A stretch of 64,000 nt of DNA, from NCBI RefSeq assembly GCF_003334765.1, contig NZ_QOWT01000010.1, one strand, 5' to 3'. Shown piece by piece: positions 49,705-53,956 of this stretch; within the stretch, counting starts at the first letter, position 1, and each line of letters opens with the position of its first letter. This DNA comes from Escherichia coli. GTDB taxonomy: Bacteria > Pseudomonadota > Gammaproteobacteria > Enterobacterales > Enterobacteriaceae. Position numbers and translations under genes: made by a program. The notes under the pieces were generated by a model, which ran no database searches, was not told where the DNA came from, and was given only the letters and a program-made list of their open reading frames with translations.

Positions 49705-49758
49705 CTTAACTATCCCGTTGTGAAGCCGGATAGTATTTTATCCGGCGTAATAGCAGAG

Positions 49759-50628
49759 TTACTCGATTTTCTTTCCTTCCATCAATCGTTGCACCAGCGG
49801 CAGCATAATTAATTCCATTGCCAGACCCATTTTGCCGCCCGGTACCACTAACGTATTGATGTGGGAAATGAATGAGCCTTGCAACATCGCCAGCAGCCAG
49901 GGGAAATCGATCCCTTCCAGATTACGAAAATGGATCACCACAAAGCTTTCATCGAGCGACGGGATACCTTTTGCCGCGAACGGGTTTGAAGTGTCGACGG
50001 TGGGAACGCGCTGGAAGTTAAGATGGGTGCGGGAAAACTGCGGTGTGATGTAGTTGATATAGTCTTCCATTGAACGCACTACTGAGTCCATCACTGCTTC
50101 TCGTGAGTGCCCGCGCTCGCTGGTGTCGCGGATCAGTTTTTGAATCCACTCAAGGTTAACGATAGGCACCACGCCGACCAGTAAGTCCACATGCTGCGCA
50201 ACGTTATGCTGTGGCGTGACTACGCCGCCGTGTAAACCTTCATAAAACAGTACATCAGTGGGTTCCGGTAAAGGTTGCCAGGGGGTGAATGTCCCCGGTA
50301 CCTGATTCCACGGTACGGCTTCGTCGTAGGTATGCAGATATTTGCGAGATTTCCCTTTGCCGCTCTGACCGTATTCAATGAAGGTTTGTTCCAGCAGGCC
50401 GAAGTCGTTAGCCTCGGGGCCGAAGTAGCTGATATGCCGCCCGGCGTCGCGCGCTTTGCGGATCGCCATGTCCATTTCCGGGCGGGTGTAACGGTGAAAA
50501 CTGTCGCCTTCCACCTCAGCTGCATGCAGATTTAACTGCGCGAATATTTTACGAAACGCGAGGCTGGTGGTGGTGGTCCCCGCGCCGCTGGATCCTGTTA
50601 CCGCAATGACCGGATGTTTGGCAGACAT
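49759..50628 (-). CDS. prkB: Phosphoribulokinase homologue (uridine kinase-like P-loop kinase)
   Basis: 289 aa; Walker A VTGSSGAGTTT near the N-terminus. Confidence 0.9.
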   Translation of the reverse strand: MSAKHPVIAVTGSSGAGTTTTSLAFRKIFAQLNLHAAEVEGDSFHRYTRPEMDMAIRKARDAGRHISYFGPEANDFGLLEQTFIEYGQSGKGKSRKYLHTYDEAVPWNQVPGTFTPWQPLPEPTDVLFYEGLHGGVVTPQHNVAQHVDLLVGVVPIVNLEWIQKLIRDTSERGHSREAVMDSVVRSMEDYINYITPQFSRTHLNFQRVPTVDTSNPFAAKGIPSLDESFVVIHFRNLEGIDFPWLLAMLQGSFISHINTLVVPGGKMGLAMELIMLPLVQRLMEGKKIE

Positions 50629-50681
50629 AGTAACTCCATGACTTAGCTATCATTATTATCTCGTCCGCCGACGGTTGCAGG

Positions 50682-50900
50682 TTATTCGCGAAACTGACTG
50701 CGCGGCATAATATTGACCGTTTCGTGCAGCTCCGACCATACCAGCACCGCTTCTCCGCACTGTAGCTGGCGTTTGACGTCGGCGACTTTCTGTTCAAGTG
50801 TACGCTCATGTTCACCATAATCGGTGCCTTCACGTAACACAAAGCTTTCAATTAAATTTTCCAGCGTTTCGGGGGAGAGGTCTTGCCACGGAATCAACAT
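50682..50900 (-). CDS. yheU: Small protein of unknown function (UPF0270)
   Basis: 72 aa ORF; overlaps the yheT stop. Confidence 0.8.
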
Positions 50901-51916
50901 GATTTCGCCTCCAGATACGTTGTTAACCAGTCAGGAATGCGTGACTCCAGCCACATTTGCGGATGAAGTAATGTACCGCCAATAAAGCCAACATGACCGC
51001 CATGTTCAGTCAGTTGATACTCCACCTGCGGGGGGAGACTTTCCGGTTTCGGGATCACCTGATGATCCATAAACGGATCGTCTTTGGCGTGAATAATCAG
51101 CGTCGGTTTGGCGATCCGGTTCAGCATCGGCATGGCGCTACACTGACGATAATAGTCGATAGCGTCGGCGTAGCCGTGAATTCTGGCGGTGATGAGATCG
51201 TCAAATTCACGGATGCGACGTACCGATTTTAACTGCGCGAGATTAATCGGCAGCGTTCCGGGGTAGGCTGCCAGCTTGCGCGCGGCATTGGCTTTTAACA
51301 GGTTCAGCAAGTAACGCTGATAAACGCGGGAAAAGCCCTTTTCCATATGATAGCTACAGGCTTCCAGCATAAACGGCGCAGAGACAATCACCGCCGCATC
51401 AACCGGGAGATCATTGCCTTCCTTTGCCAGCAAACAGGCCAGCATATTACCGCCGAGCGAATAGCCGACGGCAGCCGTTGGCGCATGACCAAATTCGCGT
51501 TGCAGCCAGCGTAAAAACCAACTGGCGTCTTCGGTTTCGCCCGAATGGTAAATGCGGTGCATACGGTTTGGTTCACCGCTGCATCCGCGAAAATGCATCA
51601 CCACGCCCAGCCAGCCGCGCTTTTGCGCCGCCTCAACCAGACCGTGGGCGTAAGGGCTGTTGAGACTGCCTTCCAGCCCGTGAAACACCACCAGACGAGG
51701 TTTATGTTGCGCCTGTGCAGGGTTTTCACTCCACGCAAGATCGACAAAATCGCCGTCGGGCAACTCCAGCCGCTGCCAGTACGGGGTGAATTTCACCTGA
51801 CGACGAAACAGACGCGGCAGCATGGTTTGCAGATGACAATTGCTAAAGCCGCGCATGGGGATGAATTCAGCACTGCTGCTGAATTCATTGGCATCGATCG
51901 TCGTTATCTGCGCCAT
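50894..51916 (-). CDS. yheT: Alpha/beta-fold hydrolase
   Basis: 340 aa; nucleophile elbow GYSLGGN; start overlaps the yheS stop. Confidence 0.88.
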
Positions 51917-53829
51917 CAGTTGCTTTGGCCTTCCAGCAGCATCTGCTCAAGCTGCTCCTGGGCTTCCAGCCATGCCATTTCGCACTCTTCCAGGCCGGAT
52001 TTGGCGCTGGCTTGCTGTTGCAGGCAGGCGGTCAACTCCGCTTTACGGCTCTGGTCATACAGTTCGCTGTCGCCGAGTTTCTCTTCCGCCTGCGCCAGTT
52101 GCGCGTTCAGCTTCTCCATCTCTTTTTCCAGACGGGCAATCTCTTTACGCAGTGGCTGGGTTTGCGCACGCAGCTCAGCTTCCCGACGCTTCTGATCTTT
52201 ACGTGCCTGGGCGCTGTTCGCATTCTCTTTTGGCGCTTCGTCGGTCTGGTTTTCCTGCTTTTGTACGTCGCTCAACCACTGTTGATAATCTTCCAGATCG
52301 CCGTCGAACGGTTCGACTTTACGATCGTGAACCAGGTAGAGATCGTCAGTGGTGGAACGCAGCAAATGACGGTCGTGCGAAACGACAACCAGCGCGCCTT
52401 CAAACTCGATTAATGCTTCGGTGAGTGCCTGACGCATGTCGAGGTCAAGGTGGTTAGTCGGTTCGTCGAGCAGCAGCAGATTCGGCCGCTGCCAGACAAT
52501 TAATGCCAGCACCAGGCGGGCTTTTTCCCCACCGGAGAAGCGGCGCGTTTCTTCGGTTACTTTATCGCCCTGGAAACCAAAGCCGCCGAGGTAGTCACGC
52601 AGTTTTTGTTCCAGCTCCTGCGGCGCTAAACGTGCCAGATGTTGAATAGGTGATTCGTCGGCGCGCAGGTATTCAAGTTGATGCTGGGCGAAGTAGCCGA
52701 GTTTGATCCCTTTCGCCAGACCAATTTCACCGCTGACTGGCGCAAGTTCACCGGCTAACAGTTTGATTAATGTCGATTTACCCGCGCCATTGCGGCCTAA
52801 CAGACCAATACGCGAGCCGGGCACCAGGTTCAGTTTAATCGAGTCGAGAATAATGCGATCGCCATAGCCCGCGCTGACTTTTTCCATCTTCAGTAACGGA
52901 TTTGGCAGGCTTTCCGGCGCGCGGAAGCTAAAGCGGAACGGGTTGTCGACGTGCGCGGGGGCAATTAGCTCCATACGCTCGAGCATCTTAATGCGGCTCT
53001 GGGCCTGCTTCGCTTTGGTGGCTTTGGCACGGAAACGGTCGATATAACTTTGCAGATGCGCTACGCGTTCCTGCTGGCTTTCGTACATCGCTTGTTGCTG
53101 CGCCAGACGGGTGGCGCGCTGTACTTCAAACGAACTGTAGTTGCCGGTGTACTCGAACATGCTTTGTTGTTCGATATGAATAATTTTATCGACGATCGGA
53201 TCGAGGAAGTCGCGGTCGTGAGAGATCAGGATCAGCGTGCCCTGATAGCTCTTCAGCCATTTTTCCAGCCAGATAACGGCATCGAGATCGAGGTGGTTAG
53301 TCGGTTCGTCGAGCAGCAGCAAGTCTGAACGGCAAATCAGCGCCTGGGCAAGGTTAAGACGCATACGCCAGCCCCCGGAAAAATCACTTACCGGGCGCTC
53401 CAGTTGTTCATTGCTGAAACCGAGGCCGTGCAGCAGGCTGGCAGCACGGGAGCGAATACTCCATGCGTCAATAGCATCCAGCTTGCCATGAATGGTCGCA
53501 ATGGCGTGCCCGTCGTTACGTTCGTTGGCGTCGTGTAGCTGCGCTTCTAGTTGACGATATTCACGGTCGCCGTCAATGACATATTCCAGCGCCGCTTGCG
53601 GTAACGCCGGCGTTTCCTGATTCACCCACGCCAGTTGCCAGCTTCCCGGAAAGGTGTAGCTGCCGCCGTCGGCGCTGATTTCATTTTTCAGCAATGCCAG
53701 CAGGGTAGATTTACCACAGCCGTTTTTACCCACCAGGCCGACTTTCTGCCCAGGGTTGATGGTGGCGGTGGCATTATCCAGCAGGACGCGCACGCCGCGA
53801 CGAATTTGTAACGAGGAGAAAACAATCAT
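51916..53829 (-). CDS. yheS: ABC-F family ATPase (tandem ABC domains, no TM domain; ribosome-associated type)
   Basis: 637 aa; two Walker A motifs (GKNGCGKST, GRNGAGKST) and two ABC signatures (FSGG), with a charged coiled-coil linker and C-terminal extension. Confidence 0.92.
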   Translation of the reverse strand: MIVFSSLQIRRGVRVLLDNATATINPGQKVGLVGKNGCGKSTLLALLKNEISADGGSYTFPGSWQLAWVNQETPALPQAALEYVIDGDREYRQLEAQLHDANERNDGHAIATIHGKLDAIDAWSIRSRAASLLHGLGFSNEQLERPVSDFSGGWRMRLNLAQALICRSDLLLLDEPTNHLDLDAVIWLEKWLKSYQGTLILISHDRDFLDPIVDKIIHIEQQSMFEYTGNYSSFEVQRATRLAQQQAMYESQQERVAHLQSYIDRFRAKATKAKQAQSRIKMLERMELIAPAHVDNPFRFSFRAPESLPNPLLKMEKVSAGYGDRIILDSIKLNLVPGSRIGLLGRNGAGKSTLIKLLAGELAPVSGEIGLAKGIKLGYFAQHQLEYLRADESPIQHLARLAPQELEQKLRDYLGGFGFQGDKVTEETRRFSGGEKARLVLALIVWQRPNLLLLDEPTNHLDLDMRQALTEALIEFEGALVVVSHDRHLLRSTTDDLYLVHDRKVEPFDGDLEDYQQWLSDVQKQENQTDEAPKENANSAQARKDQKRREAELRAQTQPLRKEIARLEKEMEKLNAQLAQAEEKLGDSELYDQSRKAELTACLQQQASAKSGLEECEMAWLEAQEQLEQMLLEGQSN

Positions 53830-53956
53830 AAGGTGCCGTATGTTCAGACTATGTTAACTTATCATTATGATAATGTAATGTATGGGCGAGCTGCCGCACC
53901 GGGCGCAATGGTAGCCCAAAACAGCGACTATACACAAAAACCATACCGGGAGGGGG

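Follow-up and report, generated by a model that had tools for sequence, protein, structure and literature searches.

The yheS-yheT-yheU-prkB locus of Escherichia coli: an ABC-F gene next to a conserved unit with a phosphoribulokinase homologue

The locus in Escherichia coli

We focus here on the yheS-yheT-yheU-prkB cluster of Escherichia coli, in which the gene for an ABC-F ATPase is followed by those for an alpha/beta hydrolase, a small protein and a homologue of phosphoribulokinase (PRK). The cluster lies in a 64,000-nucleotide (nt) stretch of contig NZ_QOWT01000010.1, the window, whose positions serve as coordinates for the E. coli locus; genes were called from its open reading frame (ORF) listing and the minus-strand sequence. 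Comparison with related bacteria suggests that yheT, yheU and prkB form an older unit, to which yheS became tightly joined in the Escherichia lineage. An original prediction, made from the letters of this DNA, had placed four co-directional minus-strand genes at 49759-53829. The ORF listing and the sequence agree with these positions, and RefSeq names yheS, yheT, yheU and prkB at matching places, with kefG-kefB on one flank and yhfA and crp on the other. The genes and features are as follows.

51916-53829, minus strand: yheS, ABC-F ATPase of 637 amino acids (aa), with paired nucleotide-binding domains, a linker between them and a charged extension at the C-terminus
50894-51916, minus strand: yheT, alpha/beta-fold serine hydrolase, 340 aa
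50682-50900, minus strand: yheU, UPF0270 family small protein, 72 aa
49759-50628, minus strand: prkB, bacterial-type phosphoribulokinase homologue, 289 aa
51914-51918, minus strand: yheS stop/yheT start junction TGATG, a 1-nt overlap with common base 51916
50894-50900, minus strand: yheT stop/yheU start overlap ATGTTGA, 7 nt
50629-50681, minus strand: 53-nt spacer between yheU and prkB, containing GGAG (50634-50637) and nothing resembling a terminator
49725-49746, no strand assigned: stable hairpin GCCGGATA-N6-TATCCGGC, inside the convergent prkB/yhfA spacer
53830-53956, no strand assigned: divergent kefG/yheS intergenic region of 127 nt, presumed site of the yheS promoter

The overlaps that had been claimed for yheS/yheT and yheU/yheT are thus present, of 1 and 7 nt respectively. 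A point to be refined is prkB, which overlaps nothing and starts 53 nt after yheU. The segment 49000-54500 was matched by megablast in 5426 of 5426 complete E. coli genomes, with coverage of at least 80% in 5423, and is part of the E. coli core genome. The four genes are real genes and not a statistical pattern, and chance is not at issue. The genes, their names, an operon statement and the mechanism of YheS are already on record, and the locus is in this sense an ordinary, known one.

Transcription of the cluster

The anatomy of the cluster fits a single operon: the genes are co-directional, separated by overlaps or short spacers, and no terminator appears until after prkB. Promoters and terminators were sought with simple consensus tools. 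The terminator scan found no minus-strand terminator-like site in the spacers between the four genes, and the yheU-prkB spacer is unstructured (fold z-score +0.82). The hairpin at 49725-49746, on the other hand, has a fold energy of -18.7 kcal/mol on the minus strand (z -3.25) and -23.3 kcal/mol on the plus strand (z -4.52); it was missed by the scan because it lacks a canonical U-tract, and it is likely to be the end of both converging transcripts, those of prkB and yhfA. Ribosome-binding sequences accompany the downstream genes, with GGAGG 8 nt 5' of the yheU ATG, within yheT, and GGAG 5 nt 5' of the prkB ATG; for yheS, no Shine-Dalgarno match occurs within 30 nt 5' of its ATG. Promoter-like sites were fewer than in shuffled sequences. 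In a preprint on four E. coli ABC-F proteins, yheS-yheT-yheU is stated to be an operon, prkB is listed as a co-cistronic downstream gene, and yheT and yheU are said often to adjoin yheS in other organisms (bioRxiv 10.1101/2023.06.11.543863). Taken with the anatomy, this statement makes a single transcript, running from the kefG/yheS intergenic region to the hairpin past prkB, the most likely arrangement.

The region upstream of yheS holds a few further features. Citrobacter and Pluralibacter share its final ~30 nt (CATTACATTATCATAATGATAAGTTAACATAG) but not the frame upstream of them. A 31-codon ORF (53849-53944, minus strand) stops 19 nt 5' of the yheS ATG and was considered as a leader peptide of the kind found at resistance ABC-F genes. 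We rejected this, as only its last 9-13 codons are common to Citrobacter and Pluralibacter, where the upstream frame differs, and the ORF is absent from other genera. Of its product, only the C-terminal HYHND(K/N)LT recurs in E. albertii, Citrobacter and Pluralibacter, and conserved promoter DNA is the more probable reading of the stretch. Short ORFs starting MIDIY or MIDFF occur 5' of yheS in several Vibrio loci. An E-value scan of 48-56 kb against Rfam gave one match only, at chance level (E 0.99), and thus no known RNA element. The CRP-like pattern TGTGA-N6-TCACA, allowing up to two mismatches, has 31 matches in the window against 25.7 expected; one at the 3' end of yheT (50940-50955) recurs only in the near-identical locus of E. 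albertii, and we do not claim it as a CRP site.

Conservation of yheT-yheU-prkB across species

Gene order was compared in loci found by a scan with a PRK alignment, using one genome per species. More than 600 matches resulted, of which we used the 80 best, each with 68% identity or more to E. coli PrkB; neighbours were located by tblastn within 10 kb on each side of prkB. The loci comprise 37 from Enterobacterales, 17 from Vibrionales, 6 from Aeromonas-like bacteria and 20 from Alteromonadales in the broad sense, and the counts are as follows.

Enterobacterales, 37 loci: yheU less than 400 nt before prkB in 36; yheT and yheU adjacent in 35; yheS upstream on the same strand within 10 kb in 22
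Vibrionales, 17 loci: yheU less than 400 nt before prkB in 17; yheT and yheU adjacent in 16; yheS upstream on the same strand within 10 kb in 16
Aeromonas-like, 6 loci: yheU less than 400 nt before prkB in 5; yheT and yheU adjacent in 3; yheS upstream on the same strand within 10 kb in 0
Alteromonadales in the broad sense, 20 loci: yheU less than 400 nt before prkB in 1; yheT and yheU adjacent in 1; yheS upstream on the same strand within 10 kb in 3

Furthermore, crp lies 3' of prkB on the same strand in 60 of 60 loci from Enterobacterales, Vibrionales and Aeromonas-like bacteria, while most of the 20 Alteromonadales loci have prkB by itself. These linkage counts make yheT-yheU-prkB(-crp) a robustly linked set, from which we infer that YheT, YheU and PrkB may share a task. 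Co-occurrence across genomes had been proposed as a check on the whole cluster. Within 10 kb of prkB, the arrangement yheT-yheU-prkB is strongly conserved and contiguous in nearly all Enterobacterales and Vibrionales, whereas the yheS junction varies, being tight only in Escherichia and some Vibrionales and interrupted elsewhere.

Two departures from the usual order may be recorded. In Colwellia and Thalassotalea, a lone prkB directly follows rpsM-rpsK-rpsD-rpoA-rplQ (L074, 6908-10900; L061, 6994-10900), and neither locus has yheS, yheT or yheU within 10 kb of prkB. In Hafnia paralvei, a 615-aa DUF4153 gene lies between yheU and prkB (L021, 8118-9965; Pfam E 9.6e-12, no NCBIfam match), making this the only one of the 37 Enterobacterales loci in which the yheU-prkB pair is split.

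The junction between yheS and yheT

Both yheS and yheT were located in 20 of the Enterobacterales loci, and the gap between the two genes is below 150 nt in 2 of them, 150-1200 nt in 9 and above 1200 nt in 9. An opposite-strand gene for a LysE/RhtB-family transporter lies between yheS and yheT in 16 of the 20, which rules out their co-transcription in those loci. The two short gaps are those of E. albertii, whose junction is the same as that of E. coli, and of Escherichia sp. ESNIH1, which has a 109-nt AT-rich spacer from the yheS stop to the yheT ATG that is absent from E. coli and E. albertii. Because the gap is wider or interrupted in other Enterobacterales, we take the yheS/yheT overlap, seen only in E. 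albertii and the window itself, to be a derived deletion state of Escherichia-type loci. The original prediction had read co-transcription from the overlaps, and had taken them to hint at a functional link between YheS and PrkB. The former agrees with the E. coli anatomy and with the operon statement in the preprint, though the overlap from which it was read is a derived trait of Escherichia-type loci; the latter gains little from junctions so often wide or interrupted.

The junction is also a hot spot for insertions in Enterobacterales (L060, 5348-8627; L004, 1509-8628; L017, 3407-8038; L021, 2394-6695). A Citrobacter island at this place carries genes for nicotinate phosphoribosyltransferase (nadV), ribose-phosphate diphosphokinase (prs) and an NtrR-like protein (ntrR), and in Pantoea and Hafnia the junction holds the taurine transport/dioxygenase cluster tauABCD. 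In 14 Vibrionales and 3 Shewanella-like loci, yheS and yheT are separated by a co-directional gene of the TIGR02444 family (for example L043, 8164-8709; L042, 5938-6411; L062, 8091-8543), which is absent from the E. coli window.

In the spacer between the divergent LysE-family gene and yheT, the most conserved block is a CRP-like palindrome (L026, 8586-8601, TGTGTTATTGATCACA). It is also seen in L020, L021, L024, L027, L033, L016, L017 and others, with a conserved TGTGATATTGATCGCA form in Yersinia and Pectobacterium. Of 35 Enterobacterales loci, 19 have the palindrome, the background being 0.38 sites per kb (binomial p ~5e-9); it is absent in E. coli, which lacks this spacer. In Yersinia, the distance of the site from the start codon is ~62 nt for the LysE-family gene and ~40 nt for yheT. 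This spacing would suit a class II site serving the LysE-family gene no less well than a site serving yheT.

The encoded proteins

YheS matches the NCBIfam model NF007921 with 1407 bits over residues 1-636 and scores 431.7 bits on the ribosomal-protection-like ABC-F model (cut-off 380). It has Walker A motifs at 34 and 345, FSGG signatures at 150 and 431 and Walker B motifs at 170 and 451. No hydrophobic or membrane segment was found in the protein, the maximum 19-aa hydropathy being 1.22. Tandem ABC domains with full motif sets, together with this lack of a membrane segment, place YheS in the ABC-F YheS subfamily and confirm that yheS is, as had been read from the DNA, an ABC-F gene without a membrane domain. 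Its earlier assignment to a class concerned with ribosomes and translation was likewise sound, and YheS itself has meanwhile been characterised. Published work describes binding of YheS to the ribosomal E site and its action on the peptidyl-transferase centre (PMC13249984, PMC11162784), and a cryo-electron microscopy (cryo-EM) structure of YheS on the ribosome exists (PMC13249984). SecM-arrested ribosomes are released by YheS both in vitro and in reporter assays, and a yheS deletion was without effect under the conditions tested (PMC11162784). The subfamily is spread widely through Proteobacteria, Bacteroidetes and Cyanobacteria (PMC6723617), a range much wider than that of the prkB clade sampled here. 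Within yheS, a 40-nt direct repeat (52439-52478 and 53282-53321, 843 nt apart, 38/40 identical) codes in both ABC domains for the Walker B segment LLLLDEPTNHLDL; this repeat may be the cause of the second place matched by megablast in most E. coli genomes.

PrkB, of the bacterial phosphoribulokinase family (PF00485), matches the NCBIfam equivalog NF011997 over residues 1-288 with 524.7 bits against a cut-off of 362, and aligns with the PRK of R. sphaeroides (1a7j) over residues 1-288 on 1-289 with an E-value of 7.8e-94 and 50% identity. These matches bear out the assignment of prkB as the gene for a PRK-type kinase in an organism without RuBisCO. The P-loop GSSGAGTT occupies residues 12-19, and all 81 clade sequences have S14, D42, H45, R49, E130, K164, R167, D168 and R172. 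In Rhodobacter numbering, the conserved positions include D42, D169, E131, H45, R49, K165, R168 and R173, which we take, from Rhodobacter mutagenesis and structure work, to have catalytic roles or to bind the phosphate of ribulose-5-phosphate. E. coli PrkB Ser186 (50071-50073) aligns with Rhodobacter Arg187. The positions aligned with R234 and R257, presumably the NADH-activator site of the Rhodobacter enzyme, both carry His in E. coli and differ among clade members.

Among the four proteins, conservation is highest for PrkB, with a median identity to E. coli in Vibrionales of 74%, followed by YheS (66%), YheU (62%) and YheT (51%), and PrkB is 68-99% identical across the four orders. Given conservation of this kind, PrkB is probably active as a sugar-phosphate kinase and under strong selection; its conserved residues point to ribulose-5-phosphate, or a very close ketose phosphate, as the most likely substrate. 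The earlier view that the substrate is undefined agrees with the literature searched, in which we found no paper on the substrate, enzymology or phenotype of enteric PrkB.

No RuBisCO or other cbb genes occur in the window or in the 80 related prkB loci. The PRK family is compact, with 183 clusters at E 1e-30 or better in a 50%-identity library; one homologue of 50% identity is part of a textbook cbb operon that includes RuBisCO (L086), and another occurs by itself on a marine contig. It is common for PRK genes to occur without RuBisCO: in a survey of genomes, Prk was present in 4,284 and RuBisCO in 2,141 (PMC7895386). A 377-aa database protein (P0001) is 100% identical to E. coli PrkB. It also carries Pfam PF12338, which we take to be the RuBisCO small-subunit N-terminal family, and it looks like an engineered or chimeric sequence.

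YheT scores 647 bits on NF008218 (cut-off 267) and matches Pfam Abhydrolase_1 (PF00561) with an E-value of 2e-41. It has a GxSxG nucleophile elbow (GYSLG) at residues 151-155, and S153, D279/D280 and H308 are invariant in 58 orthologues. Judged by its fold and these residues, YheT is predicted to be a Ser-Asp-His alpha/beta hydrolase. The E. coli start of YheT lies 14 residues ahead of the start of the NCBIfam model (51857-51916 being its first 20 codons) and ~17 residues ahead of those used in Yersinia, Photorhabdus and Vibrio, with an in-frame ATG at codon 21; this N-terminal extension may be real, as Citrobacter has the same one. YheU, with 146.6 bits on NF003438 (cut-off 86), belongs to the UPF0270/YheU family (PF06794), and its only structural relative is P. 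aeruginosa PA3463 (PDB 1y0n, E 5.5e-9). In Pseudomonas and Stutzerimonas, yheU homologues are near no homologue of yheT or prkB; they follow genes for a GNAT/RimK-type ligase and a peptidase M42 (L082 and L083, 1085-6231; L084, 22-6231), before which lies an Asn_synthase gene in Pseudomonas, with an intervening sensor kinase gene in Stutzerimonas. On the enzymology or phenotype of enteric YheT and YheU, searches of the literature, several of them swamped by unrelated uses of the words, gave nothing beyond the ABC-F preprint.

Origin of the arrangement and alternative explanations

Gene structures, family memberships and the comparative pattern are matters of direct observation, and a mechanistic link to YheS is not required by these data. 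We put at about 60% the probability that an Escherichia-specific deletion joined a known translation-factor gene to an older yheT-yheU-prkB unit, with the four genes probably on one transcript and with no need for a YheS-PrkB link. The older unit would be the one that Enterobacterales and Vibrionales, and with less regularity Aeromonas-like bacteria, keep contiguous beside crp. In the Escherichia lineage, the DNA parting yheS from yheT, namely the opposite-strand LysE-family gene and its intergenic region, would have been deleted, so bringing the yheS stop codon into overlap with the yheT start. The downstream genes would then be read from the yheS promoter, on one transcript ending at the hairpin past prkB.

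Several observations weigh against this account. In Vibrionales, yheS-TIGR02444-yheT-yheU-prkB form a compact co-directional array; its successive gaps in L043 measure 10, -4, 26 and 72 nt, the stop of the TIGR02444-family gene overlapping the yheT ATG there, and in Photobacterium aquimaris the yheS-yheT gap is only 61 nt. Both may reflect an old operon that included yheS, and hence a functional link. The Vibrionales array does make the neighbourhood including yheS an old one, and this old neighbourhood has been broken repeatedly. As to a single transcript, a weak promoter-like match (TTAACA-16-AATCAT, 50899-50926) could give prkB a start of its own, and the four genes were not found in the supplementary tables of E. 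coli transcript-mapping papers. The 80 loci compared, being the best-scoring ones, are biased to close relatives and leave out Salmonella and Pasteurellales. Finally, with regard to PrkB as an intact PRK, all 81 clade members have Ser at the position of Rhodobacter R187, where the 8 more distant PRK homologues compared all have Arg.

The readings that compete with a deletion joining yheS to an older unit are not all mutually exclusive. The four genes, with the TIGR02444-family gene where present, might constitute a functional system in which ribosome rescue by YheS is coupled to a task of YheT, YheU and PrkB, for instance by tying translation to the pentose-phosphate or energy state, and in which co-transcription has been selected. 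The position of yheS, co-directional and upstream in 16 of 17 Vibrionales, 3 Shewanella-like and at least 22 of 37 Enterobacterales loci, would suit such a system, as would the compact five-gene array in Vibrio, the occurrence of a tight junction in more than one lineage (Escherichia and Photobacterium aquimaris) and the statement that yheT and yheU often adjoin yheS elsewhere (bioRxiv 10.1101/2023.06.11.543863). We nevertheless regard it as unlikely, given that the junction is prone to insertions and carries an antisense gene in 16 of 20 Enterobacterales, that yheS is within 10 kb in 0 of 6 Aeromonas-like loci, that prkB is alone in most of the 20 Alteromonadales loci and that the YheS subfamily reaches far beyond the sampled prkB clade (PMC6723617). 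Moreover, the unrelated kefGB is likewise conserved beside yheS, and regional synteny is therefore retained here without a functional link. A further reading takes yheT-yheU-prkB to be a metabolic or signalling module of heterotrophic gammaproteobacteria, in which an intact PRK makes ribulose-1,5-bisphosphate or a related ketose bisphosphate outside the Calvin cycle; the recurrent tight coupling to yheS, in the Vibrio array and in the Escherichia overlap, would then be a real link of stalled-ribosome rescue to the pentose-phosphate or energy state. We consider this a long shot. At the opposite extreme, the four genes could be functionally unrelated, their adjacency being inherited gene order without any module. 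Synteny of the whole kefB-kefG-yheS...prkB-yhfA-crp region across orders speaks for inherited order, as does the placement of Pseudomonas YheU homologues elsewhere, after Asn_synthase, GNAT/RimK and peptidase M42 genes. Yet yheT-yheU-prkB has stayed contiguous and co-directional, with short gaps, across three orders even though the adjoining DNA was rearranged repeatedly, which makes mere inheritance very improbable.

A separate issue is whether PrkB acts as a phosphoribulokinase in vivo, or has another substrate or a regulatory role, its name being a homology label only. Heterologous PRK is toxic in E. coli, and we know of no consumer of ribulose-1,5-bisphosphate there, both of which speak for a role of this other kind. 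The same holds for the surroundings of prkB, which include neither RuBisCO nor cbb genes in any of the 80 loci, whereas a homologue of 50% identity belongs to a classical cbb operon, and for the clade-specific change from Arg to Ser at Rhodobacter R187 together with the varying positions of R234 and R257. On the other hand, all the residues that we take to be catalytic or to bind the phosphate of ribulose-5-phosphate are invariant, and the whole protein aligns with 1a7j; a role other than that of a PRK is thus improbable. Our comparison narrows the problem of why bacteria that lack RuBisCO keep an apparently active phosphoribulokinase beside crp: the partners to be paired with PrkB are YheT and YheU rather than YheS.

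Comparison with known systems

YheS resembles the E. coli ABC-F proteins EttA, Uup and YbiT, as well as the antibiotic-resistance ABC-F proteins, in its tandem nucleotide-binding domains, its linker and the lack of a membrane domain; it differs from them in its reported client, which is SecM arrest and not antibiotics or the control of initiation. YheU belongs to the same UPF0270 family of small proteins as PA3463 of Pseudomonas aeruginosa (PDB 1Y0N). The Pseudomonas gene of this family, unlike enteric yheU, is not found beside homologues of yheT or prkB. PrkB matches the R. sphaeroides enzyme (PDB 1A7J), the bacterial P-loop type of PRK known from cbb operons, over its full length and has the P-loop and the catalytic and substrate residues in common with it, but the whole clade carries Ser in place of R187, and the gene stands in a yheT-yheU-prkB-crp context without cbb or RuBisCO neighbours. 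The classical cbb operon, with cbbR, FBPase, PRK, transketolase, aldolase and RuBisCO, contains a homologous PRK gene, whereas enteric prkB has none of the other cbb-operon genes alongside.

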